Positions 6,261-53,121 of a stretch of DNA of 64,000 nt are shown here, piece after piece (position 1 is the stretch's first letter; each line of letters opens with the position of its first letter). The notes beneath the pieces were generated by a model. That model had not been told where the DNA came from. It was given only the letters and a program-made list of their open reading frames with translations, and made no database searches. The position numbers and the translations under genes were made by a program. The stretch spans positions 11,969 to 75,968 of the forward strand of contig JAIPHX010000003.1 of the NCBI GenBank assembly GCA_021734995.1, read 5' to 3'. This DNA is from Minisyncoccota bacterium (GTDB lineage Bacteria > Patescibacteriota > Minisyncoccia > Phycocordibacterales > UBA9973).

Positions 6261-6332
6261 TGCGAGATCGTCTAATGGTAGGACAACGGTTTCTGGAACC
6301 GTCTATCTAGGTTCGAATCCTAGTCTCGCAGC
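6261..6332 (+). tRNA. tRNA-Gln (anticodon CUG)
   Basis: Manually folded cloverleaf. Acceptor tgcgaga/tctcgca, D-stem gtct/ggac, anticodon stem acggt/accgt with loop ttCTGga, T-arm ctagg-ttcgaat-cctag. No encoded CCA. Confidence 0.8.
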
Positions 6333-6401
6333 AGTCTAGTTTTTCGTACCTAGTGACCAAGATGGGTGTTCTGTGTTAATTTTTTAATATAATTCTAACT
6401 T

Positions 6402-9113
6402 ATGAATAAACTGGATAAAGAAATACTAACCATCGATAAGGCCATTTGTAAAAATATCGATAAATACCACGCATCAGAAAGAGGTCTTTTGGCGCAGAAT
6501 ATCCTTTCTCAGCTCAGAAATTTTATAGAACGCGTCGCTCTTAAAGAAGAAACCAACGGACAAGATATTGATTTTAATTTCGAGGATTTAAAAAGAGCTC
6601 CAAATAGACTACAGCCAAATGGGTCACTATGGTTTATTAGAAGGTTCCATAATTTTCTGCAAGGTGTTGCAGGTCACGATACTCAAACCGAAGAAAATTC
6701 TGAGCGCTTGATGTTAAAATATTATGAATATTTACTAAGAGTCAAAGCCTACCTAAAAAATACTCACGGTTTAGATGTTCTAGATAATATTGATAAATTT
6801 CCAATAAATACTGACCCTGCGTTGCAACAGTATTATGAAAAGATAGCTGAAAGAATTGAGCGTCCAACTAAAACAAGAATAATCAATTCTTATAATGGAC
6901 GCTATTACATTCAAAAGATTAAACCATTTTTTGTTAATCACGAAATATACTATGAAGTCACTTTTACAATTGCCAGTGCTCAAGTTAGTAAATTTGATAG
7001 AGTTATTGCTTTTACGAAATTGAATATCCCTGATAATTACGCTGTTAAATTTTCTTTAATTCATGACGACATAGAGGTCTTAAGCAAAAAAATGCCCATA
7101 CAAATTATCGATAAATTTGAAGTTTCTATAAGGCCTTGCGAACTCAACAATTTTGGTCGCATTTTAGGTGAGAATGTAAAGATCGAGACAAAAAATGCAG
7201 AGTATAAAAATCTAATGGGTTTTCTAACAGACACAAAGCTAAGCCTCGTTGAGCTTATTGACCTTCCAGATGATTATTATGATGCTATAAAAACACGAAT
7301 CGTTCAGGGTCTTCAGGTTGTATACTTTTTGCCAATCTTAGACAAAGTGAGGACTCTAGTTAAGAACAATGAAGTTGGCATCAACGTAGTTAGATACTTA
7401 CTCCATTGTTTAAATAATAGAATTATAAAGTTACAGAATAGTTATTATGGCGGGTATAAACTTCGCACAGACTTCAATCTAAATCTTGGATGTAAGCCGT
7501 TCGACACAATGCCCGTTAACTCATCTTTAATAGGACATAATCCCGAAATTTCAACCGTTTTTGAATGTATTGATGCAACAGATCGAGAACACGAACTATT
7601 TGGAAGACTTATAAAAAACAATACAGAGAATAAGGGAAAGCTGTACACACCTCTAACAGGTTTGATCAAGACAAAGAAAGAAATTGAATCTCTTGTTAAG
7701 ACTTATAATAGTAAGTTGTATCTCCCCAAACATAACCATCGCAAGCTGGAGAATTTTAATGATTTTATTTATATAAATGGATATGAAAAAGATACTTTAG
7801 ACATTATCAAAAAATTTAAAGAATTGACCTTAAATGGTATAAGCAACTACTCAAATTCGGTGGACTCATGGTTAAGATCATCTGCGTACAAAATTGATTG
7901 CAAGGATAAAGAAAAAATACTCAGACAGTTATTTGCTGATTCAGAGATAGCCTTGGTATATGGGGCAGCGGGAACAGGAAAATCGACATTAATAAATCAC
8001 ATATCAAACTTTTTCAACGATAATAAAAAGCTCTATTTAGCAAATACCTATCCAGCACTTGATAATTTAAAGAGAAAAGTAACCGCAGCAAATTGCAAGT
8101 TTCAGACAATCGCAAAGTTTCTATCACCTAAAAACACTGAAGTCGACTTTGATATTCTCATCATTGATGAGTGTAGTACTGTCAGCAACATACATATGGT
8201 TAATGTCTTGAGTAAGGTAAAATTCAAATCATTGATACTAGTTGGCGATGTGTTTCAAATTGAACCTATCATATTTGGAAACTGGTTTAATATCGCGCGA
8301 TATTTTATACCCAAGACTGCTGTCTCAGAATTAACCGTTCCTTATCGCACTACCAACAAAGAATTGATTGAATTCTGGAATAGGGTCAGAAACTTACAAG
8401 ACAACATTCTTGAAAGTATGACTAGAAACGATTATACCACTGTTTTGAATGAATCAATTTTTAAGAACCTTGAAGATGATGAAATTATTCTTTGTTTAAA
8501 CTATGATGGCCTGTATGGCATCAATAACTTAAACAGGTTTCTTCAGAATAGTAACGAAAACGCACCTGTTGATTGGGATATACAAACCTACAAGACTGGA
8601 GATCCAATACTTTTTAATGAAACCGAAAGATTCGCGCCACTAATATACAATAACCTTAAAGGTAGGATTGTTGACATAAATAAAGCCGAGAAGCAAATTC
8701 AATTTGATATTGAAATTGACAAGGCCATAAACGAACTACAAGCATCTGACTATGATTTTAAGTTAGTTGGAAGTGCTGAAAATGGAAACTCAATCATTAG
8801 ATTCATTGTTAATGAGCGAGGCAACACGGATGAAGATGATGATCCTTTAGATTCCGTAGTTCCATTTCAGGTTGCTTATGCTATTTCTATTCATAAAGCT
8901 CAAGGTCTAGAGTATAATTCAGTAAAGATTGTTATCTCAAGTGAGACTGAAGAAATGATAACTCATAACATTTTCTATACAGCCATAACTAGAGCCAAGG
9001 AGAAACTAAAAATATATTGGACACCTGAAGCAGAGAAAAAAGTTTTGGCTGGTTTTCAAAAACTTGATAGTACTGAAGATGTAGAGATTTTATTTTCAAG
9101 GTTAAGTCCATAG
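6402..9113 (+). CDS. SF1 RecD/Dda-like helicase (AAA_30 + UvrD_C-like) with about 500-aa unknown N-terminal region
   Basis: Walker A ALVYGAAGTGKST, Walker B LIIDECS, and C-terminal motifs VAYAISIHKAQGLEYNSVKIV and IFYTAITRAKEKL are typical of RecD/TraA-like helicases. Confidence 0.7.
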   Translation: MNKLDKEILTIDKAICKNIDKYHASERGLLAQNILSQLRNFIERVALKEETNGQDIDFNFEDLKRAPNRLQPNGSLWFIRRFHNFLQGVAGHDTQTEENSERLMLKYYEYLLRVKAYLKNTHGLDVLDNIDKFPINTDPALQQYYEKIAERIERPTKTRIINSYNGRYYIQKIKPFFVNHEIYYEVTFTIASAQVSKFDRVIAFTKLNIPDNYAVKFSLIHDDIEVLSKKMPIQIIDKFEVSIRPCELNNFGRILGENVKIETKNAEYKNLMGFLTDTKLSLVELIDLPDDYYDAIKTRIVQGLQVVYFLPILDKVRTLVKNNEVGINVVRYLLHCLNNRIIKLQNSYYGGYKLRTDFNLNLGCKPFDTMPVNSSLIGHNPEISTVFECIDATDREHELFGRLIKNNTENKGKLYTPLTGLIKTKKEIESLVKTYNSKLYLPKHNHRKLENFNDFIYINGYEKDTLDIIKKFKELTLNGISNYSNSVDSWLRSSAYKIDCKDKEKILRQLFADSEIALVYGAAGTGKSTLINHISNFFNDNKKLYLANTYPALDNLKRKVTAANCKFQTIAKFLSPKNTEVDFDILIIDECSTVSNIHMVNVLSKVKFKSLILVGDVFQIEPIIFGNWFNIARYFIPKTAVSELTVPYRTTNKELIEFWNRVRNLQDNILESMTRNDYTTVLNESIFKNLEDDEIILCLNYDGLYGINNLNRFLQNSNENAPVDWDIQTYKTGDPILFNETERFAPLIYNNLKGRIVDINKAEKQIQFDIEIDKAINELQASDYDFKLVGSAENGNSIIRFIVNERGNTDEDDDPLDSVVPFQVAYAISIHKAQGLEYNSVKIVISSETEEMITHNIFYTAITRAKEKLKIYWTPEAEKKVLAGFQKLDSTEDVEILFSRLSP

Positions 9114-9121
9114 TAACTAAT

Positions 9122-10387
9122 TTATTCAATTACTACACGCTTATTGATGAGTATCAATTTACTCGTAAACGATTGCATCAAATCTCTCTTTTCTTGAAGA
9201 GTTCCTTCTTTAAGAAGATATTTCATATAGTTTCTAACATCTAGTTTTGTCTTTGCTATTTTTTCGTCATTGGTTAGGTCTAATACTTTATTTCTAAACT
9301 CACTATATCTTTCAATTTCTTTTTCAAGTTTTTCTTTTATTCCAACATTATTTATATCTATCCGGTCAATGATTTCAAGTAGTTGGGAAATTAATTCTTC
9401 TTCGCGAATGTAAGTATTTTTACATTGTTTATCATTAAATTTAGTACAACCATAATAAATATATTTTGCTACACTTCCATTCGCTAGATTTTTATGTTTT
9501 TCATCAGCGGTAACTCCCGATTTACACATCCCACATTTTATTAGCCTAGTGAAAGCAAATTCTTTTTCAATTTTTTTGTCATTCTTTTTGGTGTCCAATC
9601 TTTCTTGAACCCTTTGAAATATTTCCTTACTAACTATTGGATCATGTCTTCCTAAGTACCATTTACCTGATTGTCTAGGATATTCAATCATTCCCATGTA
9701 AAAATTATTTCTTAGAATAACTTGGATATTACTAAGAGTTAAAGGTTTTCCGTTTCTAGTTGTAAATTTTACATCTTCTTTTGCCCATTTATATAATTTT
9801 CTTATACTTAAATTTTCATTTAAAGCTTTTTCAAATAATAAACGTACCACATGAGATCTTAATGGGTCTGGTATCACATGACATTTCATAGTCCTATCTG
9901 GATGATTAAGATATCCAGTAGGGGCGACGCTTGGCCAGAGCCCACTCTCTACTCTTGTTCTTAATCCTCGTTTTACATTTATACTTTTATTATCATTTTC
10001 TAATTTTGCTTGTGATCCAAGAATCATTAATAAAAATTTTTCATTTGGGTTGTTTGTGAATCGCTGACTATAAGTTCTGATTTCAATTAATTTCTTTTGA
10101 TCTAGTAAATCAACTATTGCTCCAAGGTCCCCAGCATTTCTGGCGAGACGATCTGGATGCCACACTAGAATTGCATTAAATTTCCCAATACGAATATCAT
10201 TTAGAAGTTGATTGTATACAGGTCTTTGTCCACAATCTTTTGCTGAGTGTGATTCTTTATATATTTCAACAATATTTAAGTTTTCTCTCTGAGATAAGGT
10301 GAGCATCTCCTTTATCTGAGAATCTATAGATAAAGCTTGTTTTTCCTCTGCCTCGCTCGATTTGCGGGCATATAAGCAGTATTTCAT
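9122..10387 (-). CDS. Large serine recombinase (resolvase/invertase catalytic domain + recombinase domain + zinc ribbon)
   Basis: YARKSSEAEEKQALSIDSQ (catalytic Ser) and LVWHPDRLARN motifs, with a Cys-rich C-terminal region (CGMCKS...YYGCTKF...C). The ORF could start 33 codons upstream at 10486. Confidence 0.75.
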   Translation of the reverse strand: MKYCLYARKSSEAEEKQALSIDSQIKEMLTLSQRENLNIVEIYKESHSAKDCGQRPVYNQLLNDIRIGKFNAILVWHPDRLARNAGDLGAIVDLLDQKKLIEIRTYSQRFTNNPNEKFLLMILGSQAKLENDNKSINVKRGLRTRVESGLWPSVAPTGYLNHPDRTMKCHVIPDPLRSHVVRLLFEKALNENLSIRKLYKWAKEDVKFTTRNGKPLTLSNIQVILRNNFYMGMIEYPRQSGKWYLGRHDPIVSKEIFQRVQERLDTKKNDKKIEKEFAFTRLIKCGMCKSGVTADEKHKNLANGSVAKYIYYGCTKFNDKQCKNTYIREEELISQLLEIIDRIDINNVGIKEKLEKEIERYSEFRNKVLDLTNDEKIAKTKLDVRNYMKYLLKEGTLQEKRDLMQSFTSKLILINKRVVIE

Positions 10388-10546
10388 AGTAATGGCTTCT
10401 GTTAGCTTGGGATTTATTAGGATGTTTGTCGCATATGTTTCCATACACACAACATACCGCGAACGTTTATTAAGTCTAGTAAACACATCGAAATGGAGCA
10501 GAAATTTTATAAAGTCAAATATAAAGATGTGATATAATCAACTTAT

Positions 10547-12160
10547 ATGAAAATCTCTAAAATTGAAGTTGAAAATTTTAAATCTATTGAAAAATATGAT
10601 TTTGACTTAAAAGACATTAATATTTTTATTGGTAAAAATAATCACGGTAAAACAAATCTTTTTGATGCATTAGATTGGTTTGATTCTGGAAAAACAGAAC
10701 CTTCTAATTATAGAAACAATGATAGGGCTTTGCTAATAAAAGTGAGATTACATTTCGTCGGAGCTCAGGTAGCAGTTAATGCACTTGAGGATGGTGCATA
10801 TAAAACAGCAATGATAAATGCCCTAGAAGGAACAGATGAGTTTATTGTTGAAAAAGACAGCGAAAACGATAAAAGAGTTTTGATTGTTAACGGCACTACA
10901 AGACCAAATCCAAGAGGTTTTGATTCTGCTCTAAATTATTTTTTACCAAAAATAATTTATGTAACAACAAAACAGCGTTTGTCTGATATTGCTGGTTATA
11001 AATCAAAATCTCCAATCGCAGAAATGTTAGGAGATGTCCTGAAAGATATGGTTGATAATGAACCAAAATATAAGCAATTTCTCGAACTTTTTGATGATCT
11101 TTTTAATGAGAGTGATTCTGTGTTTAGACAATCAGTGAACAACCTACAAGACAGAGTAGAATTTTATCTCGCAAAACAATTTGATGAAGCAGCTGAGGTT
11201 AAATTTCGAATTGAGAATCCTGCTATCGAAGATATGCTTAAGAAATTTGAAACAGAGGTTGATGACGGAATTAAAACAAAAGCTGAACATAAGGGGGATG
11301 GAATGCAACGAGCAGTAATGCTTGCAATTGTTCAAGCATATGCGGATTTTCGAAAAGAAAAAGGTATCGCTAGAACATTTACTTTTCTTATTGATGAAGC
11401 TGAATTACACTTACACCCAACAGCTCAGAGAGCTTTAAAAAATGCCCTCCGTGAGATTGTGGAAAATGAAGGACAAGTACTTATAAATTCACATTCCCCA
11501 ATCTTTGCAAACGAGCTTTTTACAAATCAAAAGATTTATAAAGTAGAAAAGGAAACAGGAGTTTCTCAAGTTAATGAAATTATCACTGAGCAAGAGCAAT
11601 TAGACTCTATTTACCAACTTCTTGGAGGTAGTCCGCAAGACATTTTATTACCAAGTAATTTTATAATTGTTGAAGGACAATCTGAATTCCATCTATTAAA
11701 AAAGCTCATTGAAAAACTATATTTTGATAACAAAAAATGTTCAGCCATTAAAATACTTTTCGCTCGGGGTGATCATGAAAAACATAAAGATATTTATCAT
11801 TGCATTCATCAATGTTATACTCCATTACTTACAAACGGTATTTATAAAAATAAGGTAGTATTTCTCATGGATAGTACAGATCCATCAAAACAAGCCTCTT
11901 TTGATACCTTCAAGGCAACACATAGTTGGCTTATTGAAGGAGAACAACTACATGTTCTAACTGTTCCAGCTATTGAAATGATTTACCCTGATTCATTTAA
12001 AAAAACAAAACTAGAAGTTGATAAAATGACCAATCCAAAAGAAAAAATAAATATTGCTTTAGGTGTAGCAAATTCAATCAACACCAAACAAGAGCTTCAA
12101 GATAAAATGCCAGCAATTTTTAACATGTTAGAGAAAGCAATAGAATTTGCTTATGAATAA
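10547..12160 (+). CDS. OLD-family nuclease (ABC-type ATPase + C-terminal Toprim), solitary class-1-like
   Basis: Walker A GKNNHGKTN. Walker B/D-loop LIDEAELHLHP. H-loop LINSHSPIF. A Toprim-like IIVEGQSEF glutamate is followed by an MDSTD acidic motif. Confidence 0.65.
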   Translation: MKISKIEVENFKSIEKYDFDLKDINIFIGKNNHGKTNLFDALDWFDSGKTEPSNYRNNDRALLIKVRLHFVGAQVAVNALEDGAYKTAMINALEGTDEFIVEKDSENDKRVLIVNGTTRPNPRGFDSALNYFLPKIIYVTTKQRLSDIAGYKSKSPIAEMLGDVLKDMVDNEPKYKQFLELFDDLFNESDSVFRQSVNNLQDRVEFYLAKQFDEAAEVKFRIENPAIEDMLKKFETEVDDGIKTKAEHKGDGMQRAVMLAIVQAYADFRKEKGIARTFTFLIDEAELHLHPTAQRALKNALREIVENEGQVLINSHSPIFANELFTNQKIYKVEKETGVSQVNEIITEQEQLDSIYQLLGGSPQDILLPSNFIIVEGQSEFHLLKKLIEKLYFDNKKCSAIKILFARGDHEKHKDIYHCIHQCYTPLLTNGIYKNKVVFLMDSTDPSKQASFDTFKATHSWLIEGEQLHVLTVPAIEMIYPDSFKKTKLEVDKMTNPKEKINIALGVANSINTKQELQDKMPAIFNMLEKAIEFAYE

Positions 12161-12202
12161 TTAATACTAGCTTATTTCCTACTTTTTATATATATTTATG
12201 TT

Positions 12203-13006
12203 ATGAATGTACTTACATTTTTACCCAAAAAAGATATAGAGAAATTTATAGATAAAGATGCTTACCTTGTTATTGAATATTTATTAAGGAAAGTAGCCTT
12301 TTCTCAACCAGAGGTAAGGAATAAATCTGAACTTTCTGGTATCCAAATAACAAAAGAGTTTTTGGAGGATTGGATAGCTCAAGCATGTAATTTAACAAAA
12401 GTAGGAGCTGGTAATTATCCTATTGATGTATATAGTCAAAATAAGTATGGAATAGATGTTAAATTTTTGACAGCAAAAATAAATAAGAGTGGTGATTATA
12501 CAAATAGCTATTCAAATGAAACTTCACTTAGCCAAAACTTTAAAATTGCCGGATTAGATTTAGATCAAATGTTTGCCAGTAAGAGATACGAAAATATATT
12601 ATCAGCTTGGATAAAAATTCTTGAAACTAAAATAAACATACCTATCAAAGATTTTAAACTGAAAAAAATTTATTATTTTATTTTTATTAGAGCTGGAAAT
12701 AAAGTTTCCTTAGCAATAGCTGATGTTAACAATAAAGAAATAAAAAAACTTACTACAAATAGATCAACAGATTCTTCTGTTTTTGTTCAGAATTTCATTG
12801 AAGATAAATATGGTAATGTAAAAATATATAAAAGTAAAAAAAGAATGGAACTTAGAGTTTTTCCTAAAAAATTAGAAGAGGATAAAAAAATGATCTCTTG
12901 GAATTTTAAAGATTTATATCCAGATATAATTTCACTTAGAGACGTAATTAAACATGAAGAGATAAAAGAGCACACTAAAAAACAGTTCAAAAAATTCTTT
13001 TCTTAG
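12203..13006 (+). CDS. Putative Type II restriction endonuclease (PD-(D/E)xK candidate)
   Basis: Convergent with, and 1 bp from the stop of, the C5-MTase gene. Candidate motif NYPID...GIDVKFLTAK (PD-x12-DVK). No other recognisable domain. Confidence 0.4.
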   Translation: MNVLTFLPKKDIEKFIDKDAYLVIEYLLRKVAFSQPEVRNKSELSGIQITKEFLEDWIAQACNLTKVGAGNYPIDVYSQNKYGIDVKFLTAKINKSGDYTNSYSNETSLSQNFKIAGLDLDQMFASKRYENILSAWIKILETKINIPIKDFKLKKIYYFIFIRAGNKVSLAIADVNNKEIKKLTTNRSTDSSVFVQNFIEDKYGNVKIYKSKKRMELRVFPKKLEEDKKMISWNFKDLYPDIISLRDVIKHEEIKEHTKKQFKKFFS

Positions 13007-13007
13007 A

Positions 13008-14585
13008 TTACTCCATCGCTTTCATCATCTGTTTAGCAACAGCTTCAACAACCGGAACACTAACTGAGTTCCCAAATTGTTTATAAAGTGCTGAATCTGC
13101 TAGATTTGGTAATTTAAAGTTATCAGGAAATCCTTGAATTCTAGCACATTCTCTTGGTGTTAATTTTCTTATCCCTTTTTTATCTTTTATTATCGGCACA
13201 TTGTGTCCACCCATACCCATATTAGCTGTTAGTGTGGGGCAAACACCGCTTTTATTTTCCCTGACATATTGTCTTCTCCATTGATATACCTTTCCTACTT
13301 CTTTTACGTCTTTTTTAAGTTTTTCAAAAAGAGGTTTACCATTATAGTAATATTTCTCAGGAACATTTTTCTCCAATAAATCCGTAATCTTTTTTGTTAA
13401 TTTAACTGGTTGTGGAAATTCAAATTTATCATAATAATCTTTGTTTTTAAACCCGACTATATAGATACGTTCACGATTCTGGGGGACATTACCATACTCC
13501 ATGGTATTTAATACTTTTGCTTTAACATGATAACCCAAGTCGTGTAAGGTTTCTTCGATTACTTTGAAAGTATTGCCTCCATCATGACTTTTTAAATTTT
13601 TTACATTCTCAAGCATAAAACCTTCTGGATTTTTTGCCCTAATAATTTTTGCTATATCAAAGAATAGATTTCCTCTATTTTTTGGATCATCAAATCCTTT
13701 GCGATATCCTGCAATTGAAAATGCCTGACAAGGGAAACCTCCCAAAATGAAATCAAATTCAGGTAAGTCATCAATTCCTAGTTTTCTTATATCTTCAACT
13801 ACAAGTTTTGAGTCTTTGAAGTTAATATCATATGTTTGTTTACATGGAGCATCAAAATCATTTGCAAAGACTGTTTTAAATCCTGCATTTTCAAACCCCA
13901 TTCTTATTCCTCCTATACCAGCAAATAAATCTATTGTTTTAAATCCATGCTTAGTTTTCTTTTGAGACTTCTTCTCTTCTTCCTGTTTTGGGCTACTGAT
14001 TATTTGAACAACCACACCTCTAACCTCAACTTCTTTTCTGTAAAAAGGAAGCATCGATTGATTTCTAGGTTCTAGTCTAAATTTGTTTTTTTCTCTGTAT
14101 AATTTTTTTAATGTTGCTTCATTATCATCAATAATAGCAACAACCGTTTGTCCATTTTCAGCTACTGACTGTTTTTTAATCACCACGATGTCTCCATCAA
14201 ATATTCCTTCTTCAGTCATACTGTCTCCTTGAACCCTGAGAGCATAGTATTCTTTTGGGTTCTTAATACTAGAATTTATTATTGAAATAGTCTCTGTTCT
14301 ATCCTCAATAGCTTCTATTGGCTGTCCAGCGGCGATACTTCCCATTACTGGTATTTCTAAAACTTTAAATGTTTCGATTTTGGGTTCTATACTTCTAGAT
14401 AAATTCTCTGATTTACTTATGTATCCTTTTTCTTTTAATGCGTTTACATGTTCGTGAACAGTAGAGATAGCCTTGAGTTTGAATTTCTTACGTATCTCAT
14501 CATTCGTGGGGGATATGCCATTTTCGGCTATGTATGAGTTAATAAAATCCAATATTAGTTTTTGTTTTTTTGTTAATGATTGCAT
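13008..14585 (-). CDS. LexA-like repressor (HTH + S24 autopeptidase) fused to DNA (cytosine-5)-methyltransferase
   Basis: The N-terminal 200 aa include a winged HTH, cleavage-site-like IAAGQP, the Ser nucleophile GDSM and NGQTVVAIIDDNEATLKKL (LexA Lys region). The C-terminal 325 aa carry MTase motif I DLFAGIGG, motif IV GGFPCQAFS, motif VI ENVKNL, QNRERIYIVGF and motif X GNSVSVPV. The ORF is continuous. Confidence 0.8.
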   Translation of the reverse strand: MQSLTKKQKLILDFINSYIAENGISPTNDEIRKKFKLKAISTVHEHVNALKEKGYISKSENLSRSIEPKIETFKVLEIPVMGSIAAGQPIEAIEDRTETISIINSSIKNPKEYYALRVQGDSMTEEGIFDGDIVVIKKQSVAENGQTVVAIIDDNEATLKKLYREKNKFRLEPRNQSMLPFYRKEVEVRGVVVQIISSPKQEEEKKSQKKTKHGFKTIDLFAGIGGIRMGFENAGFKTVFANDFDAPCKQTYDINFKDSKLVVEDIRKLGIDDLPEFDFILGGFPCQAFSIAGYRKGFDDPKNRGNLFFDIAKIIRAKNPEGFMLENVKNLKSHDGGNTFKVIEETLHDLGYHVKAKVLNTMEYGNVPQNRERIYIVGFKNKDYYDKFEFPQPVKLTKKITDLLEKNVPEKYYYNGKPLFEKLKKDVKEVGKVYQWRRQYVRENKSGVCPTLTANMGMGGHNVPIIKDKKGIRKLTPRECARIQGFPDNFKLPNLADSALYKQFGNSVSVPVVEAVAKQMMKAME

Positions 14586-14671
14586 ATTGATTAAATTATT
14601 TGATTGCGCTACAATTCTATTATAACCGAATATATACCGAAAGTCTAGGCAATATAGGTATAAATAATTAA

Positions 14672-16180
14672 ATGGCTAAACCTAAAATAACAAGAACATA
14701 TGGACCAATACACTTCGAAGATTTAGACCCGAAGCGCTTTGAGGATTTAGCTAGAGAATTAATATATGACTTTAAAGATTGGCAGACAATAGAAGCAACT
14801 GGTAGAGGTGGTAATGATGGGGGTTTTGATGTTAGGGCGTATGAAAAAACTTCTGACATTTCTAATGAAGAAGATAGCGAAGAAAATGAAGAAAAAGTTG
14901 CCCATCCCATGGATGGTAATTTATGGATGATTCAGGGAAAAAGAGAGAAGGAAATTGGTCCTAAAAGAATAAAAGAGATACTAAAAGATGTAGATTCAAA
15001 AAATCCCCCATATGGATATATGTTAGTCGCCTCGGCAAATTTTTCTAAAGATTCTTACGATTCTTTTAGAAAAGAATTAAAAAAGAAAGGAGTAATGGAA
15101 TTTTATCTCTGGGGTAAAGCGGAGTTAGAAGATATGTTACATCTTCCAAAAAATGATCGCATACTATTTACCTTCTTTGGTATTTCGTTGGTAAGCAGAA
15201 GACGGTCTAAATCTGCTGAAGTTAGATCTAAGTTAGTTATTAAGAATAAAATTTATAAAACTCTTGGTGGTAGTTGGGAGTCTTTAAATGACACCTCTGT
15301 TTTAGTCAGAGATATAGATGATATCCATTATCCGTATAAAAATAAATATAAAGATTTTGATAAAAAGCCAAAATGGAAAGAGTATTTTGCTTATGACTAT
15401 CATCCCTTAGGTGTATGGTTCCATACACGCAAATACTACGCTTACGTTGATTTGGCAAAAAAAGAATGGGACTACACTTCTGAAGTAGATTTATTATATC
15501 GACAGGTAAAAAGTGAGAAAGAAAAGGAATTAGAACTTAATAAACGCAATGAAATAAAAACTATATGGGAATTTTTCCCTAATTCTCACAAAGGATATTT
15601 TAACCTAGATGGATTAATAGATTTTGAAAACATACTTTTAGTTGATGATAAGGGAGATAGTTTACACACATTCCCTCACTTCTACGCTGAATATAAAGAT
15701 AAATCTGGACCTTTTGTTGGAGGTTGGGAAAGTTTTACTTTTGAAAACAAAGAGAGAAATATTACTTTAACAAAAGATTGGAAAAGAATAGAGATGTTTC
15801 CAAAAAAGATAAAGAAAATTCCCAATGGTAAAATCCATACAAAGAAAAAAATTATCTTCGATGAAGTTACATTAAAAAATCTAAAGGATTACGACCAAAA
15901 CCTTTTTGCCTTATATGACACAGATGATAAATATAAATTTTTGAATCAAAGAGATATAATCTCGGTGGAAGGTGCAGGAGATGAAGAATATAGTAAAACT
16001 TTTTTACAAATAACTCATAAGTTTAAAGTTAAGGTTAAAGATTATTTAGATCAAAGTAGATTTGGTTGGTTACATAATAGAATAAAAGAACAGCTTGGAA
16101 GGGACTTTGATGAAAACGAAGAAATAAATGTTTATGAATTCAAGAGGGTCTACAAGCGAGAATTTGATGTAAGTGGATAA
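14672..16180 (+). CDS. Mrr-cat-like restriction endonuclease domain protein (N-terminal nuclease + about 340-aa uncharacterised C-terminal region)
   Basis: TGRGGNDGGFDVRA, IQGKR, MLVASANFSKDS and YLWGKAELEDML align with the Mrr_cat consensus (tgrsgDgGiD...VQcK...vTtssFt...LidgeeL). Confidence 0.65.
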   Translation: MAKPKITRTYGPIHFEDLDPKRFEDLARELIYDFKDWQTIEATGRGGNDGGFDVRAYEKTSDISNEEDSEENEEKVAHPMDGNLWMIQGKREKEIGPKRIKEILKDVDSKNPPYGYMLVASANFSKDSYDSFRKELKKKGVMEFYLWGKAELEDMLHLPKNDRILFTFFGISLVSRRRSKSAEVRSKLVIKNKIYKTLGGSWESLNDTSVLVRDIDDIHYPYKNKYKDFDKKPKWKEYFAYDYHPLGVWFHTRKYYAYVDLAKKEWDYTSEVDLLYRQVKSEKEKELELNKRNEIKTIWEFFPNSHKGYFNLDGLIDFENILLVDDKGDSLHTFPHFYAEYKDKSGPFVGGWESFTFENKERNITLTKDWKRIEMFPKKIKKIPNGKIHTKKKIIFDEVTLKNLKDYDQNLFALYDTDDKYKFLNQRDIISVEGAGDEEYSKTFLQITHKFKVKVKDYLDQSRFGWLHNRIKEQLGRDFDENEEINVYEFKRVYKREFDVSG

Positions 16181-16448
16181 CTTAACTACACAATAATTTA
16201 AATTCAAGCTAAGCTTTTAATACCTCTAAAAATGAGGTATAATTTTAGTACAAGTGAATATGAGTAGCCTAAACCATTGAGAAATTGGTGGCATGGTGAA
16301 TAAGTCGCGTTCAACATAAAAACCCTATCATTAGGGCGTTGAACGCGCTGTATGAGGAAACTCATATATGAGACTTCGGTCTCTACCTAGTGGTAGGATT
16401 TTTGCGTCTTATCATAGGATTTATTACTAAAACGCAAAAATAATTTTT

Positions 16449-16919
16449 ATGGAAGAAAAATCAAAGAAAAAGTTTTATAAGAAGTGGTGGTTCTGGGTTA
16501 TTGTTGTAATTGTAGTATTAGCAATTGCTGGTTCATCATCTGATAATAATCAGCCAGTTTCAGTTAAGACTCCAGCGCAAAGTCAATCTGAACAAAAAGT
16601 TGAAGCAATTAAATTGAGTCCGGAAACTTTAAGACAAGCATACAAAGCAAATGAAGTTAATGGTGATAATTTGTACAAAGGAAAACTTGTAGAAATTTCT
16701 GGGACTGTAGACACTATTGGAAAGGATGTAATGAAAGAAGCATATATTACTTTTGAAACACCTGAATCTGTTTCTTTTGATAAGGTTCAATGCATGTTTA
16801 ACCAAACAGAAGAAGCTGGACTAGCTCAGTTAAAGAAAGGGCAAGCTATAAAAGTACAAGGAACAGTATCTGGAGCAACTATAGGAAGTGTAATAGTAAG
16901 AAACTGTAAAATTCAGTAA
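16449..16919 (+). CDS. Membrane-anchored OB-fold (tRNA_anti-like/BOF-type) protein
   Basis: N-terminal TM WWFWVIVVIVVLAIAG. C-terminal KGKLVEISGTV...KVQGTV is an OB-fold-like pattern typical of PF12869. Confidence 0.45.
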   Translation: MEEKSKKKFYKKWWFWVIVVIVVLAIAGSSSDNNQPVSVKTPAQSQSEQKVEAIKLSPETLRQAYKANEVNGDNLYKGKLVEISGTVDTIGKDVMKEAYITFETPESVSFDKVQCMFNQTEEAGLAQLKKGQAIKVQGTVSGATIGSVIVRNCKIQ

Positions 16920-16954
16920 AAATAGTTATTACATAAACATAGCCGATAAATATT

Positions 16955-16992
16955 AAAAGCAATAAGTGGATAACTTATTGCTTTTAATATTT
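16955..16992 (+). terminator. Rho-independent terminator
   Basis: Perfect 12-bp hairpin aaaagcaataag-tggataa-cttattgctttt, followed by an AT-rich run. Confidence 0.6.
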
Positions 16993-17161
16993 TAGATTAT
17001 GAGTTACAATATAAATATATAAGTATGCTTTTTGTTTAAGCGGAGAGCAAACCCTTAAAAGAACTGATTCTAATTTTTAAAGAAGAAGTTTAACCCTAAC
17101 ACTAATCTGGTTCGGGTTTTTTATTTTTAGTCGATTATTATAACTTAATAAATAAAATTTT

Positions 17162-17590
17162 ATGGAAGAAGAAAACAATAAAATAAATAATCAGACAAAG
17201 GATTCATCAGCAATTAGAAAAATATTAATGAGTCGAATGGATAAAAAATACGAAGTATTAGAATATCAAAAAAATCAACAGTCTCGAACTTTTAAAAAGA
17301 AATTGGAGTTTGTTGCTAATCTCCAAAGAACTCATGGAAATATATCTGCTGCTTGTGAACTAAGTGGAATTAAAAGCAGAAAGACAGCTTATAATTGGTT
17401 AGAAAAGGATCCAGAATTGAGATCTATAGTAGATGAATTGATTACAATACAAAATGACGAAATGAATGATGTGGTTTTACACTTAGCGCTTGTAAAACAC
17501 GATGGTCCAACTATAAGACACTATTTAGATCATAATCATCCAGATTATATGAAGCCTAAAAGAATCACAAGGCCCCCATATAATCATTAG
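17162..17590 (+). CDS. Phage terminase small subunit-like / HTH DNA-binding protein
   Basis: HTH NISAACELSGIKSRKTAYNWLEKDPEL resembles terS/transposase-type HTH domains. Length 142 aa. Confidence 0.4.
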   Translation: MEEENNKINNQTKDSSAIRKILMSRMDKKYEVLEYQKNQQSRTFKKKLEFVANLQRTHGNISAACELSGIKSRKTAYNWLEKDPELRSIVDELITIQNDEMNDVVLHLALVKHDGPTIRHYLDHNHPDYMKPKRITRPPYNH

Positions 17591-17617
17591 GGCCAGTGTG
17601 TAATTTTGTTCGCTAAT

Positions 17618-17752
17618 AGCCTGCAAAGTGTGTAAAAATGTATAATTTGTACAGAAAATAACCCGACCTAGACGGGTTATTTTCTGTACCCTATAAATGC
17701 TACAATACCCTTACACACCCGTCTTGGTCTGGTACTAGACCAGACCTTGCAG
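17618..17752. other. Nested inverted-repeat element (17-bp perfect hairpin, 8-bp hairpin, closed by two long-range helices)
   Basis: gtacagaaaataacccg/cgggttattttctgtac (17651-17697). ggtctggt/accagacc (17727-17747). gtgtgtaa/ttacacac and ctgcaa/ttgcag close the structure. Confidence 0.5.
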
Positions 17753-17819
17753 CCATGTTGTGTGTAGCCCGAGATACGTCACATTCTGATATTTTTATCA
17801 TATTATATATAATATAATC

Positions 17820-18350
17820 ATGGAAGAAAAAACAATTAATGCATTAAGATGGATAATTTCAATTTTAAATAAACATAATATTCCATATGGAATAGGAGGA
17901 GGTTTTGCTGCTCACATGTACGGTTCAAATCGTAAAGTAAATGATATAGATTTTTCTTTATCTGGAAAATATTTCCCTATTATTGTTTCAGAAACTAAAG
18001 ATTATATCACCTCTGGTCCTAAACATTATTCAAATGCTAAATGGGATTGTGATACACTCTCACTTAAATATAATGATCAGGAAATAGATATTACTGATAT
18101 CGACACCTTAAGGATGAGCAATAAAGAACAAGATAAATGGTTTAAAACAAAAGATTATTTTCGTAAATATGAAACGGTGCCTATTGAGTTTCAAGGAATG
18201 ATAATTCAATTTATTGACCCTCGTGATTTGGTTGCTTATAAAAAAGAACTGGCTGATCAAAACCATTTATATCAAGCTTCTGATGTTGAAGCAGTAGAAA
18301 AATATATTAAAGCAAAAATCATTCCAGAAAATTTACTTATGTTACAGTAG
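17820..18350 (+). CDS. Aminoglycoside 2''-nucleotidyltransferase ANT(2'')-like protein (PF10706 family)
   Basis: IPYGIGGGFAAHMYGSNRKVNDIDF parallels AadB LPLWIGGGWAIDARLGRVTRKHDDIDL (NTase fold G..D.D). Length 176 aa versus 177 aa for ANT(2'')-Ia. Confidence 0.6.
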   Translation: MEEKTINALRWIISILNKHNIPYGIGGGFAAHMYGSNRKVNDIDFSLSGKYFPIIVSETKDYITSGPKHYSNAKWDCDTLSLKYNDQEIDITDIDTLRMSNKEQDKWFKTKDYFRKYETVPIEFQGMIIQFIDPRDLVAYKKELADQNHLYQASDVEAVEKYIKAKIIPENLLMLQ

Positions 18351-19128: not shown

Positions 19129-19500
19129 ATGAAAAAGAAAGAAATGGCACCAAAAATAAACATTAAAACTTTAACTGAGCGTATAATAGATTTTCGTGAT
19201 GCTAGGGATTGGAAGCAATTTCACAACCCAAAAGATATTGCGTTATCTCTTGTTTTAGAGGCAACTGAAGTGATGGAACATTTTCAATGGAAAAGTAAAG
19301 AAGAAATGGAAAAATATATTGTCACTAATAAAGCTGATATAGCTGAAGAACTTGCAGATGTTCTGTATTGGGTTTTGCTCATGAGCAGTGATTTAAAGAT
19401 TGATGTACTCAAGGCTCTCGATAAGAAAATTTTAAAAAATGAAGGGAAATATCCGGTGCACAAAGCTAAAGGGAAACATACTAAGTATACTAAATTATAA
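19129..19500 (+). CDS. MazG-like nucleotide pyrophosphohydrolase
   Basis: EATEVMEHF...AEELADVLYWVL is the MazG EExxE/D metal-binding pattern. Length 123 aa. Confidence 0.6.
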   Translation: MKKKEMAPKINIKTLTERIIDFRDARDWKQFHNPKDIALSLVLEATEVMEHFQWKSKEEMEKYIVTNKADIAEELADVLYWVLLMSSDLKIDVLKALDKKILKNEGKYPVHKAKGKHTKYTKL

Positions 19501-19501
19501 A

Positions 19502-21535
19502 ATGTCTAATATTGTAACTTTTAAATATAAAAAGGAAAATTTTTATGAAATAAAACAATTTAATTTTGGGAGAAATTGGCCAGTAGTCTATTTAATTGAA
19601 GACAAAAAAGAGATTTATATTGGGCAAACAATTAATGCATATTACAGAAGTAAGCAACATTATGAAAATCCAGACAGAAGAAAACTGAGTGAAGTGCATA
19701 TTATAACAGATGAAGAATTTAATGTTTCTGCCACGTTAGATATTGAGTCTTGGCTCATTCAATATATTTCTGCTGATGGTAAATATATATTACAGAATGG
19801 AAATAGCGGGCTTAAAAATCATAATTATTATGATCGTATAAAATACAAAACCAAATTTGAAATAGCATGGAACGAGTTGAGAAAGATGGGATTAGTTAAA
19901 AATTCTTTAGAAGATTTAAAAAATAGTGATTTGTTTAAATATTCGCCATATAAATCTCTTACAGAAGATCAATTTTTTATTGCAAGAAAGATTTTTAGAG
20001 ATATTAAAAGAAACAAAAACAATACTTTTGTTATAAATGGTAAACCTGGTACAGGTAAAACAATTTTAGCTACATACCTTTTTAAATATTTAAAAGAACA
20101 AGATGAAACAAAAAATATGAAAATTGGTCTTGTTATTCCGATGACTTCATTGCGTACAACTTTAAAAAGAGTTTTTAGTAAAATAAAAGGATTGAAATCA
20201 AATATGGTTATTGGGCCGAACGGTGTTGTTCAAGAACAATATGATCTATTGATAGTCGACGAAGCACATAGATTACAACGAAGGAAAGGTATTATGGGTT
20301 TTGGTGCCTTTGATAATATAAATCGTCGGCTTGATTTAGGAAACAATGGTACACAGCTTGATTGGGTTATGAAATCTTCTAAACATCAAGTTTTCTTTTA
20401 TGATGAAAATCAAAGCATAAAACCTGCTGATATTAGATCTGATGATTTTAAAAATCTTAAAACAAAGAGATATGAATTAAAATCTCAGATGCGAGTGGAA
20501 GCAGGAGAAGAATATATCAAATCTATTGAAGATTTTTTTGATTTAAAAATTCCTCAAAATACAAGTTTTCTAAATTATGATTTAAAAATTTTTGATGAGG
20601 TAAAAGAAATGATTACTTTGATTAAAGAGAAAGACAAAAATTATAAATTATCTCGTGTAGTTGCTGGTTACGCATGGCCATGGCATACAAAGCCAAAAAG
20701 TAAATCAACTAAAAAACATGATATTGAGATAAGTGATTTAAAACTTGTTTGGAATTCTACAGCTCAAGATTGGGTTAATTCCCATAATGCTATAAATGAA
20801 GTTGGTTGTATCCATACTGTGCAAGGTTATGATTTAAATTATGTTGGAGTTATCATTGGACCAGAGTTTTATTATGACCCAATCAAGAAAAAATTTGGAG
20901 TAAATCGTGAACAATATTTTGATGTCAATGGAAGAAATGGTATTACAGATCCGAATGAATTAGAAAGATATATTATTAATATTTACAAAACACTTCTTAC
21001 TAGGGGGATTAAAGGAACTTATATTTATGTTGTAGATGAAAATTTAAGGGATTATTTTAAAAAACAATTTAAACAAAAAGTTTCCGAAACAGGTCTAAAG
21101 GAATTTTATAATACAGAAATGATAACCTCTCCTTTCACAATGGAAATGATTAGAATTCCATTAGTTGGTTCTGCTCCATGCGGAAATCCTTTTCTTGGTG
21201 AAGAAAACATAGAGCAGTATATTGAAGTTGAAAAAAATAAAATTAAACCTGGAACAAAATATTTCATAGTTAAAGCAAATGGAGATTCAATGAATAAAGC
21301 AGGTATTAATGATCAAGATTTAGTACTTTGTCGTTACTCTGAAAAAGGTGAAACGGGTGATAAGGTTATTGCATTACTTGATGGTGAAAATGTTACCATA
21401 AAATATTACGATAAAAAAAATGGGCGTAGAATTTTGTTGCCAAAAAGTACAAATATAACACATCAACCAATTTTCCCTAAAGAAGGTGATATAGTTCAGG
21501 GGATTGTTCAAGAAGTTTTGAATAAAAAATCTTAA
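19502..21535 (+). CDS. Tri-domain protein: GIY-YIG nuclease + DUF2075/Schlafen-like DEAH ATPase + UmuD/LexA-like S24 autopeptidase
   Basis: GIY-YIG: VVYLIEDKKEIYIGQT..R.KQH..E..N. ATPase: Walker A INGKPGTGKT and LLIVDEAHRL. C-terminus: cleavage-site-like APCGNP (UmuD Cys-Gly), GDSM Ser and VTIKYY Lys. The start sits 1 nt after the MazG stop (MSNIVTF); the listed ORF start at 19439 overlaps MazG. Confidence 0.7.
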   Translation: MSNIVTFKYKKENFYEIKQFNFGRNWPVVYLIEDKKEIYIGQTINAYYRSKQHYENPDRRKLSEVHIITDEEFNVSATLDIESWLIQYISADGKYILQNGNSGLKNHNYYDRIKYKTKFEIAWNELRKMGLVKNSLEDLKNSDLFKYSPYKSLTEDQFFIARKIFRDIKRNKNNTFVINGKPGTGKTILATYLFKYLKEQDETKNMKIGLVIPMTSLRTTLKRVFSKIKGLKSNMVIGPNGVVQEQYDLLIVDEAHRLQRRKGIMGFGAFDNINRRLDLGNNGTQLDWVMKSSKHQVFFYDENQSIKPADIRSDDFKNLKTKRYELKSQMRVEAGEEYIKSIEDFFDLKIPQNTSFLNYDLKIFDEVKEMITLIKEKDKNYKLSRVVAGYAWPWHTKPKSKSTKKHDIEISDLKLVWNSTAQDWVNSHNAINEVGCIHTVQGYDLNYVGVIIGPEFYYDPIKKKFGVNREQYFDVNGRNGITDPNELERYIINIYKTLLTRGIKGTYIYVVDENLRDYFKKQFKQKVSETGLKEFYNTEMITSPFTMEMIRIPLVGSAPCGNPFLGEENIEQYIEVEKNKIKPGTKYFIVKANGDSMNKAGINDQDLVLCRYSEKGETGDKVIALLDGENVTIKYYDKKNGRRILLPKSTNITHQPIFPKEGDIVQGIVQEVLNKKS

Positions 21536-42510: not shown

Positions 42511-42820
42511 GTGTGTTTTTGGAGTTATATAAAAATACCCCAAAAATTATCCTGCTCGGGAAAACATAAAAATAATTGGCAGTCGGACTTGTTCTCTTTA
42601 GTTTTCAAGAAACTAGAGACTTACCGTAGCGGCACTGTACCGGATTCTCACCGGTTTCCCCCATTATTTTTCTTAATTTTTAAACGACTTACATATACAT
42701 TGTACCTTTATTGGATTGCGTATGTCAACCTTGTGTTTTGTACCCCAAATTTGTAGGTGTGACGCTTGCAGTTATCTTATATCTAAAGCATTTTTACTTT
42801 AAATATGTATAATATGAAAG

Positions 42821-48481: not shown

Positions 48482-48580
48482 TTTTTATGTGGATATCTAG
48501 TTGTTATTTATATTTACTATAATATTCATTTATTCAAATAATTATTTTTTAATAAATTATAAATAAAACATTTTACCTAA

Positions 48581-48612
48581 AACACCCTTCTAAACAAAGG
48601 GTGTTTTAATAT
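48581..48612 (+). terminator. Rho-independent terminator after the M15 peptidase gene
   Basis: aacaccctt-ctaaaca-aagggtgtt followed by ttaatatt. Confidence 0.5.
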
Positions 48613-48893: not shown

Positions 48894-50470
<1,577 letters not shown>

Positions 50471-50631
50471 TTTGAAACTCTCTAGATTTATCTAGATTAT
50501 AGAGTCGATATTATGTCGCTCAATTGACGACATAATGCCTTTTGTAAGGGCTAATTACAAGGACTATTATTCTAGTCTTTAAAAGAATATGACACATTGG
50601 AAAGACTTGAAGTTATACGTCGCAAGACGGA

Positions 50632-51665: not shown

Positions 51666-51789
51666 TATAATAAAAGTGTAGTATAATATTACAAGGTCGT
51701 CTTATTAAGGAATAAAAGAAAAATATCATGTCCTTAGGAGGTCACTAAAAATAAAAAGACAGCGTTAGCTGTCTTTTTATTTTAAATAT

Positions 51790-52965: not shown

Positions 52966-53093
52966 CATTTTAAAAGCCTTATGTTATAATATATATAAAT
53001 GAATTGTTTTTTCCTGTAGCGAGTGGTCGCACTCACATAGGCACATATGTTGGAGTTTCGCCATCACTCGCTTCAAGTGAAAATAATTTTGTA

Positions 53094-53121
53094 AAAAAAC
53101 CGCTCTGTGCGGTTTTTTTTA
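53094..53121 (+). terminator. Rho-independent terminator (aaaaaccgc-tctgt-gcggttttttttt)
   Basis: GC stem plus a U9 run. Closes a candidate sRNA or the upstream operon. Confidence 0.6.

Follow-up and report, generated by a model that had tools for sequence, protein, structure and literature searches.

The attachment (att) sites of phage large serine recombinases (LSRs), such as those of phiC31, Bxb1 and A118/LI, are, as far as described, about 40-50 bp long and self-sufficient, with no accessory site, and the res sites of the Tn3 and gamma-delta resolvases consist of a crossover site plus accessory subsites. According to Islander, serine integrases are not known to target tDNAs (PMC4383910), and among the tycheposons 27 of 937 tRNA-associated elements have an LSR, and some elements have terS (10.1101/2020.12.28.424599). 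The locus analyzed here lies in a 64,000-nucleotide stretch (the window) of contig JAIPHX010000003.1 from a Minisyncoccota bacterium, a metagenome-assembled genome of Candidatus Pacebacteria (Patescibacteria/CPR), where an element rich in inverted repeats (17595-17765) separates a small terS-like gene for a helix-turn-helix (HTH) protein from a gene for an ANT-like nucleotidyltransferase. A sequence-only reading of the window had described this element as a highly structured nest of inverted repeats, with candidate roles ranging from a recombination or packaging site to a structured non-coding RNA. Comparison with related loci favored the att-site role, with the element as the last ~160 nt of an LSR island whose ends have homologues in eight others. 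We consider it probable that the element is the right, attR-side terminus of an 11,421-bp LSR island inserted at the 3' end of tRNA-Gln, and that the hairpin around its motif M2 doubles as a terminator.

Ends of the island and a shared subterminal motif

Relative to an unoccupied site, the insert comprises 11,421 bp (6333-17753) between tRNA-Gln and the host ANT-like gene. The features that bear on its ends are as follows; the loci compared are numbered with the prefix L.

6261-6332, plus strand: tRNA-Gln(CTG), found by ARAGORN and by the Rfam tRNA model (63 bits), with GCAGC (6328-6332) at its 3' end forming the left junction of the insert
6333-6367, plus strand: left terminal segment, the proposed P' arm, with AGTCTAG (6333-6339), GTAC (6346-6349) and motif M1 (6355-6367)
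6355-6367, plus strand: motif M1, GACCAAGATGGGT, a direct copy of M2 that starts 20-22 nt inside the left junction in eight islands
9122-10486, minus strand: LSR, the presumed integrase, with the Pfam domains Resolvase (PF00239, 4e-24), Recombinase (PF07508, 1e-14) and Zn_ribbon_recom (PF13408, 3e-8)
17649-17689, no strand assigned: 17-bp perfect hairpin around M2 (A-tract, GC core, U-tract), a probable bidirectional intrinsic terminator
17665-17677, plus strand: motif M2, GACCTAGACGGGT, repeating M1 in direct orientation, at the apex and in the 3' arm of the 17-bp hairpin
17699-17716, plus strand: conserved box GCTACAATACCCTTACAC, consensus nnnAATA(C/G)(C/G)C..ACA, resembling a -10 element
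17717-17729, minus strand: motif M3, an inverted copy of M (ACCCGTCTTGGTC on the plus strand), clear in the window, L070 and L059 and partial in L106
17726-17753, plus strand: terminal segment, the proposed P arm, with the 8-bp hairpin, GTAC (17732-17735), TAGACCAGACCTT and the junction core GCAGC (17749-17753)
17754-17819, plus strand: host flank with the promoter region of the ANT-like gene, outside the island, aligned to the flanks of unoccupied sites

The right junction, GCAGC(CA) at 17749-17755, repeats the GCAGC of the left junction at 6328-6332. Past GCAGC-CA, the flank in the window and in L070 follows the consensus ACTTGAGCTAG...CGAGAC, and the flank of the window aligned with the sequence 3' of the genuine tRNA-Gln end in the unoccupied loci L005, L047 and L012; the host flank (17754-17819) also aligned with L003 and L006. 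A promoter scan placed a promoter-like CTGATA-16-TATAAT in this flank at 17786-17813.

Metagenome contigs contain more than 562 relatives of the LSR, and 80 of these loci were fetched and compared. In 37 of the 80, tRNA-Gln was located downstream of the LSR on the opposite strand, as in the window. The sequence past the tRNA GCAGC was conserved between loci with differing tRNAs: L066 and L070 share an identical 20 nt after the tRNA, plus the motif, despite considerably different tRNA genes, and L087, L088 and L095 keep the post-tRNA sequence across CTG and TTG isoacceptors. Since the sequence following GCAGC is conserved though the tRNAs differ, the left boundary of the mobile DNA is the tRNA 3' end. 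The left-end consensus in the LSR subfamily of the window is AGTCTAG-N(4-6)-GTA(C/T)-N5-GACC.A.A..GGGT. In L100, L117 and L120, tRNA-Ser, tRNA-Tyr and tRNA-Lys, respectively, lie 98-195 nt past the LSR stop codon in the same arrangement, which suggests that the family switches targets only between tRNA 3' ends. Annotation of 18 genes in the island and its surroundings revealed no tyrosine recombinase domain.

Searching for the motif in related loci and at island junctions, two checks that the sequence-only reading had proposed, recovered the right end in eight other LSR islands. These ends (L070, L059, L106, L072, L066, L063, L127 and L099) were found by BLAST and an iterated nhmmer profile, and each was oriented in the same way with respect to the LSR; both ends could be mapped in seven of the other islands, which measured 5.6-12.7 kb. 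The distance from the start of M2 to the end of the terminal CAGC was 89-91 nt in all nine islands including that of the window, and the intervening sequence was mostly unconserved. The M2 13-mer GACCTAGACGGGT was identical in five of the nine. Invariant positions in the nine-island alignment were CGACCT (17664-17669), T17677, A17704, A17707, A17715, AC (17734-17735), ACC (17739-17741) and CAGC (17750-17753). The right end accordingly has four conserved blocks, each in a fixed position: M2, a short A-rich box, TAC..ACC and CAGC. To the left of M2, the sequence could not be aligned between islands, including both upstream GTGTGTAA copies and the CTGCAA arm of the inverted repeats. An outward promoter at the TAnAAT-like conserved box was not called by the promoter scan, and position 2 of the hexamer is unconserved.

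Motif M is a quasi-palindrome (GACC..GGTC), and its two copies relate the two ends to each other. When the two ends of each island were aligned locally in direct orientation, the best match fell on M1 and M2, at the same offsets, in 8 of 8; the repeat reached 41 nt in L106, and none of 500 shuffles was as good (shuffles in our own scripts keep mononucleotide, not dinucleotide, composition). A strict form of the motif matched 16 times in 853 kb of LSR loci, on one strand only and always near an island end, compared with one match in 456 kb of control (ANT) loci. All-against-all BLAST revealed the LSR as the only protein common to the eight compared islands, and the eight other islands share with the window only the LSR, both end regions and, in seven of the eight, the LOOT RNA. 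The island family is thus a mobile backbone with variable cargo, a classic pattern.

The terminal 23 nt of the island, GGTACTAGACCAGACCTTGCAGC, are equal in length to GGTTCGAATCCTAGTCTCGCAGC of the tRNA and match it at 14 of 23 positions. At the right end, a degenerate segment like the T-arm and acceptor strand precedes GCAGC-CA; a match to the tRNA 3' end with three or fewer mismatches in 14 nt was not found there, and only GCAGC is shared exactly. Because the terminal segments were closer between islands than to the tRNA of each host, and are not copies of the resident tRNA, we read this segment as island DNA mimicking the target, resembling the portion of tRNA-Gln from the T-loop to the 3' end. 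M3 accounts for the long-range complementarity with the hairpin apex. Terminal inverted repeats centered on GTAC (6346-6349 and 17732-17735) were also considered and, though attractive in the window, rejected as not general, M3 being absent in five of nine islands; the match GACCAAGA(T/C)GGGTGT of these repeats was no better than 3.6% of background windows.

Insertion hotspot between tRNA-Gln and the ANT-like gene

The context of the ANT-like gene, whose product is common in Patescibacteria (243 matches), was surveyed in 40 GTDB genomes and six metagenomic loci. In at least 14 of 40 other genomes, the ANT-like gene was preceded on its own strand by tRNA-Gln, with a gap of 40 nt to 4 kb, and L005, L011, L012, L022 and L047 have unoccupied junctions with a 40-nt gap. 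Degenerate tRNA 3' fragments were often located between the two genes (L006, L013, L016, L018, L009 and L003). DNA has been inserted repeatedly between tRNA-Gln and the ANT-like gene, which makes this interval an insertion hotspot. The nearest relatives of the ANT-like gene have other inserts at this site, and the HTH protein was seen in the genome of the window alone.

In L003, which has the closest ANT homologue (92% identity), the upstream sequence shared with the window begins only at about 17745 (CAGCCA...) and covers just the ~75 nt that precede the ATG; comparison with 47 other ANT loci gave no match. A leader conserved with the ANT-like gene was therefore rejected as a role for the element.

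Several loci contained further insertions at the hotspot or traces of them. A second type of island end was observed in L013, L016, L018 and L010 (e.g., L018 upstream of the ANT gene; L010 420-505), with the sequence ...TGTAAG.TTC.AGAA..GTAC/TCACGGTCCTAGTCTCCCAGCCA (a slash marks a junction, here and below). In these loci a true tRNA-Gln fragment, consisting of the 3' strand of the T-stem and the acceptor strand, follows GTAC; the insertion is therefore inside the T-loop. L010 had also been considered as a solo M site left by excision, is probably another decayed island, and was not used as evidence. L051 (4329-4440 and 10560-10640) contains a left-end segment after a truncated tRNA-Gln 3' fragment, with an island of another subfamily beyond it. 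L099 (100-180) and L059 (2700-2760) each have a second, decayed right-end remnant past the first. In L006 (1975-2075), tRNA-Gln contains a 37-nt GC-rich palindromic insertion in the D-loop region (...TCTAATGG[cccgcctcgcgtcgacgagcttgcgagtcgaggcggg]TAGGAC...), and the 3' end of this tRNA, TCCTAGTCTCCCAGC, recurs downstream at 2288 and, in degenerate form, at 3930.

Proposed recombination and position of the crossover

In the reaction that we propose, the LSR would be the integrase of the island and would bind the tRNA-3'-end-like terminal segment, including its 8-bp hairpin, with AGTCTAG..GTAC..M1 of the left end as the partner, and strand exchange would occur in or beside the shared GCAGC. The tRNA-Gln 3' end and its flank would constitute attB, and the right end joined to the left end would constitute attP. 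M1 and M2 may be sequence-specific protein-binding accessory sites that fix the geometry or the direction of the reaction; the reader of M2 would most simply be the LSR itself or a host factor, because no other protein is common to the islands. In the AT-rich lineage of the window, M2 may have gained A-rich and U-rich arms, by which the 17-bp palindrome would also have become a bidirectional terminator of the last gene of the island. A crossover at GCAGC would yield a circle with the junction ...CCAGACCTTGCAGC/AGTCTAG... (also ...GACCAGACCTTGCAGC/AGTCTAGTTTTTCG...) and an empty chromosomal site ...TCTCGCAGC/CATGTTG... (also ...CCTAGTCTCGCAGC/CATGTTGTGTGTAG...).

Several observations weigh against this account. 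Neither a circular form nor an empty-site contig from a close relative was found, and the position of the crossover is inferred rather than observed. A right end was recognizable in only 9 of the 80 loci, all of one LSR subfamily. M3 is missing from five of the nine islands, and the dyad around GCAGC in the reconstructed attP was better than 500 of 500 shuffles only in the window and L059 (two of eight islands). The standard LSR model leaves a conserved motif 89 nt inside the end unexplained. As for the terminator part, L070, L106 and L059, which come from GC-richer hosts, have no U-tract. A further point, the arrangement of M1 and M2 as direct repeats, is the basis of the alternative considered next.

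The alternative that survived best, which we regard as unlikely but worth keeping in view, places the crossover inside motif M. M1 and M2 would then be the attL and attR cores, with the hairpin apex as the attR core, and 17678-17752 together with 6333-6354 would lie outside the current island, as a landing pad already resident there or as what is left of an older element. The circle expected is ...AATAACCC-M-GTTCTGTG... (also ...GAAAATAACCC-GACC(T/A)AGA(C/T)GGGT-GTTCTGTGTT...), and the expected chromosome is ...CCTAGT-M-TATTTTCTG... (also ...GTACCTAGT-GACC..GGGT-TATTTTCTGTAC...). Direct repeats that flank the LSR and cargo in all eight islands, with 41 nt in L106, fit such a crossover, as does the small palindrome of M (GACC..GGTC), which is like the center of a recombinase site. 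In the window (TTCTGT) and in L106, M1 and M2 are followed on their right by similar sequences, and layered remnants are common at the hotspot (L099, L059, L051 and L006). However, the 20 nt between the tRNA and M1 that L066 and L070 share despite their differing tRNA genes are hard to reconcile with host DNA, and the five unoccupied tRNA-Gln-ANT junctions contain no such landing pad. Moreover, the 89-91-nt spacing between M2 and CAGC holds across hosts with differing flanks, suggesting one co-inherited unit.

LOOT RNA in the island family

Apart from the LSR and the end regions, what recurs in the backbone of these islands is an RNA of the LOOT family (RF03000), in the window outside the element. 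The matches were as follows.

Window, 16266-16384, plus strand: LOOT RNA, Rfam 74.5 bits
L072, 2407-2533: LOOT RNA, Rfam
L099, 3601-3722: LOOT RNA, Rfam
L127, 4950-5071: LOOT RNA, Rfam
L066, 2315-2435: LOOT RNA, Rfam
L063, 2302-2419: LOOT RNA, Rfam
L070, 1812-1941: LOOT RNA, Rfam
L059, 5174-5301: LOOT RNA, Rfam

Rfam thus detected LOOT in seven of the eight other islands, and among the 24 LSR loci whose sequence upstream of the LSR reached 8 kb or more, an nhmmer profile detected it in 18. LOOT nearly always points to the right end, opposite in strand to the recombinase. In the window and in six further LOOT islands that were inspected (L072, L063, L099, L070, L066 and L059), a small open reading frame of 90-184 aa with hydrophobic, transmembrane-like segments started 15-80 nt downstream of LOOT; no sequence similarity was detectable between these reading frames of different islands. 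In the window this frame (16449-16919) encodes a Sie-like/tRNA_anti-like protein. A possible role of LOOT is that of a leader for, or a partner of, these downstream small genes. The conserved 5' end of LOOT (16267-16276, GCCTAAACC) shares CCTAAAC with the core of M (GACCTA(A/G)AC); inspection revealed no covariation between the two that was consistent across islands, and the likeness may be due to chance. No functional statement on LOOT was found in the searchable literature, and as far as that literature shows, the islands provide the first genomic context for this orphan RNA.

A more far-reaching view, to which we give only a slim chance, holds that the islands represent an undescribed type of Patescibacteria element, combining an LSR directed to the 3' end of tRNA-Gln (in relatives, of other tRNAs), M1 and M2 as required accessory sites at fixed spacing and a backbone in which LOOT always precedes a small membrane-protein gene, with LOOT or the terS-like protein taking part in mobility. 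If it were true, the role of LOOT or of the terS-like protein could be, for example, direction control, satellite-like packaging or RNA-assisted site recognition.

Inverted repeats and the 17-bp hairpin

All four inverted repeats listed in the sequence-only reading were found again at the positions given there. The 17-nt arms 17649-17665 and 17673-17689 are 100% complementary around a 7-nt loop, ACCTAGA; in the 8-bp hairpin, GGTCTGGT (17726-17733) pairs with ACCAGACC (17739-17746); GTGTGTAA (17596 and 17628) is complementary to TTACACAC (17711-17718), and CTGCAA (17621) to TTGCAG (17747). The last of these, with 6 bp, is at chance level, about 3.5 such pairs being expected per 170 nt. The nested architecture is not conserved, as the outer GTGTGTAA and CTGCAA partners lie in the sequence that cannot be aligned between islands. 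Because the independent Logan assembly L001 (run SRR12088350) has a 100% identical copy of the 235-nt spacer that includes the element, the element is not an assembly artifact. Within the 64-kb window, a search for the 17-mer with up to three mismatches returned only the two arms of the hairpin itself, which excludes, for the window, the REP-like (repetitive extragenic palindromic) element that had been offered as an alternative, as well as a dispersed palindrome of the miniature inverted-repeat transposable element (MITE) kind.

The hairpin is built as AGAAAAUAA-CCCG...CGGG-UUAUUUUCU, with the U-tract in the 3' arm paired to the A-tract of the 5' arm; the inner stem AACCCG/CGGGTT is followed by AUUUUCUG. 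It starts 59 nt past the stop codon of the HTH gene (17590). The same build of A-tract, GC core and U-tract was observed in the other long perfect hairpins of the window, which are located at gene ends (16948-16992, 48578-48608, 51748-51783 and 53093-53119). The first of these, a 20-bp perfect hairpin (AAATATTAAAAGCAATAAGT / ACTTATTGCTTTTAATATTT) just past the Sie-like gene, is longer than the 17-bp one. A terminator scan missed the 17-bp hairpin, and its silence is uninformative because the scan, which seeks a U-tract after the complete stem, also missed two of the four comparators. The earlier statement that no U-tract follows is literally right for the full 17-bp stem, but the 3' arm is itself a U-tract immediately after the GC core. 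The earlier dismissal of a terminator is doubtful, as the build matches the other terminators of the genome. By analogy with these, the 17-bp hairpin probably also serves as a terminator. Homologues in GC-richer hosts have no U-tract, and we therefore take termination to be a second function that the M2 palindrome has in this lineage.

It is improbable that the region consists only of terminators and leftover sequence, with the hairpin ending the HTH gene and the rest being decayed debris of no present role in recombination. The build of the hairpin, its position after the stop codon and the degenerate tRNA 3' fragments that gather at this hotspot would agree with this, and the cargo and the LSR could be inactive. 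The pattern of conservation, however, is the opposite of what would be expected of a terminator, with a conserved loop and 3' arm (CGACCTAGACGGGT) and a 5' arm that varies without compensation; the spacing between M2 and the junction is fixed, the motif is confined to LSR islands and to one strand, and the U-tract is missing in L070, L106 and L059.

Gene content and the terS-like gene

The remaining features at the right end are as follows.

17162-17590, plus strand: terS-like small HTH gene (142 aa), the last gene of the island; Pfam HTH_28 below the curated cut-off, phrog_4044 at E = 7.5e-4
17595-17603 and 17627-17635, plus strand: direct repeat AGTGTGTAA, lineage-specific, in a stretch that cannot be aligned with other islands
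17820-18350: ANT-like nucleotidyltransferase of the host

After tRNA-Gln, the genes are ordered as a PDC-S53 helicase, the LSR, an Old nuclease, a LexA-S24-C5-methylase fusion, an Mrr-like nuclease and LOOT, followed by the Sie-like membrane protein, the terS-like HTH gene, the element and the ANT-like gene. Old, PDC-S53, a restriction-modification-type methylase, the Mrr-like nuclease and the Sie-like gene are cargo of the defense type. The mapping provides base-level boundaries for a defense island in a phylum whose mobile elements are poorly mapped. Only two homologues of the HTH protein were found among 5.8 billion proteins; related proteins are encoded near the right end in L063, L059 and L099.

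Four of the ten copies of GTGTGTA in the window lie inside the element, whereas three copies would be expected for the whole window. They are located at 17596, 17628, 17712 (minus strand) and 17760, four within 171 nt; the two upstream copies belong to island-specific sequence, one lies in the conserved box and one in the host flank.

A packaging (pac) or transfer signal read by the terS-like HTH protein, with the island as a satellite of a Patescibacteria phage, is in our judgment very unlikely. In its favor, the window and L063 have a terS-like gene next to the right end and L099 and L059 have homologues, the cluster of GTGTGTA repeats follows closely after this gene, and tycheposons, which are also found at tRNA genes, include terS-bearing members resembling phage-inducible chromosomal islands (10.1101/2020.12.28.424599). 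On the other hand, the terS matches are weak (E = 7.5e-4 to 5e-6, in the HTH region only), the protein does not occur in all islands, and no GTGTGTA-like repeats are present downstream of the terS-like gene in L063. The annotated genes include no capsid, primase or large-terminase gene. In BLAST searches of phage and plasmid collections, the 235-nt spacer had only chance matches, to the AT-rich promoter part, and IMG/VR DNA-pattern scans with three element sequences returned nothing relevant, the loci L129-L131 having no LSR, LOOT or tRNA.

Four further observations concern other parts of the window. The fusion at 13008-14585 (minus strand) joins a LexA DNA-binding domain, an S24 peptidase and a C5 cytosine methylase, an unusual combination. 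Outside the mapped island, 19439-21535 (plus strand) encodes a fusion of a GIY-YIG-like N-terminus, a Schlafen-group-3/DUF2075 helicase and a C-terminal S24 peptidase. The 16S rRNA gene (48895-50472) contains about 65 nt, compared with 12 in the bacterial model, near model position 80, as an insertion. A match to the adenosylcobalamin riboswitch model AdoCbl-II at 42569-42679 (minus strand) scored 37.9 bits, barely above the gathering threshold of 36.5.

Folding and conservation of the element

The element folded more strongly than expected by chance, in agreement with its earlier description as highly structured. The minimum free energy was -69.3 kcal/mol on the plus strand (z = -6.1, 0 of 200 shuffles as good) and -69.0 kcal/mol on the minus strand (z = -5.5). 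The 17-bp hairpin alone, at -24.6 kcal/mol, supplies most of this signal, and the fold that remains without it has a z of about -2.4. The GC content of the element is 42%, compared with about 28% nearby.

Analysis of the nine-island alignment revealed no corresponding conservation of pairing. The hairpins of the sequence-only reading were paired in 60.6% of cells, compared with 58.3 +/- 1.9% in shuffles; by helix, the values were 55% for the outer 11 bp, 74% for the inner 6 bp and 54% for the 8-bp hairpin, no better than shuffles, and an alternative M2:M3 helix was paired in 60.3% compared with 57.3%. RNAalifold kept only the 5-bp mini-palindrome of M at -3.4 kcal/mol, without a compensatory pair. 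The 5' arm varies (CCCG to AGCG, TGCG, GGCG or GCCG) while the CGGGT of the 3' arm stays constant; this constancy is conservation of the sequence, as expected of a protein-binding DNA site, and not of the folding. An attenuator, in which 17661-17677 would alternatively pair with 17717-17733, was rejected for want of covariation and of a downstream gene on the strand with a workable order.

Rfam identified no family in the element at gathering or permissive thresholds (best E = 0.17, 21-23 bits compared with gathering thresholds of 47-55), and the best sub-threshold matches were terminator parts of leader models. No tRNA or transfer-messenger RNA was found in the element by ARAGORN, which called only the tRNA at 6261-6332, and the Rfam tRNA model had no match up to E = 10 in 17400-17950. 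It is therefore scarcely credible that the element is a structured non-coding RNA, be it a tRNA-like molecule or a leader that regulates the ANT-like gene in cis: strong folding of both strands (z about -6), the elevated GC content and a terminal 40 nt that are like a tRNA 3' half ending in CCA speak for such an RNA, but the element has no Rfam or ARAGORN match and no covariation in any helix, and L003 shares only the sequence from about 17745 and not the element. The earlier proposal of such an RNA was accordingly given up. Note that, as a caution for non-coding RNA screens, att regions and palindromic terminators in AT-rich genomes can reach z -6 without being RNAs.

Comparison with known systems

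As in the tDNA islands of Islander and TIGER, the present island has an intact tRNA at one end, an onboard integrase, variable cargo and unoccupied sites in relatives, together with a degenerate tRNA-like fragment (..GCAGCCA) at the far end and a reused hotspot with tandem remnants. It differs in having an LSR instead of the tyrosine recombinase of the classical definition, and in that only ~5 nt (GCAGC) are shared exactly and the far-end fragment is not a copy of the resident tRNA. A large and widespread family of serine recombinases is found at tRNA 3' ends, a target for which, according to older reference work, no serine integrase was known. Prochlorococcus tycheposons (Hackl et al.) are likewise cargo-carrying integrative elements at tRNA genes; they belong to another phylum, and neither LOOT nor subterminal repeats of the M type are described in that study, in a comparison made by description.

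The 17-bp hairpin shares with bidirectional intrinsic terminators a perfect palindrome, an A-tract that pairs with a U-tract around a GC core, and a location after a stop codon, whereas here the loop and 3' arm are conserved whether paired or not, and several homologues have no U-tract.

In common with attP and attB of phage LSRs, the system has the domain architecture of the recombinase, a short shared junction core and, in some members, a partial dyad of the arms. Here, however, a motif in direct orientation lies 89-91 nt and 20-22 nt inside the two ends, and the target is a tRNA 3' end. The family yields natural attL/attR pairs that could be mined for recombinase tools. The small palindromic extra sites at fixed spacing near a serine-recombinase crossover recall the res sites of Tn3 and gamma-delta, as a functional analogy only, since the spacing, the number of sites and the enzyme subfamily differ and M2 is here a putative site only. 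The fixed spacing of the motif hints at accessory-site control, outside the standard LSR model.

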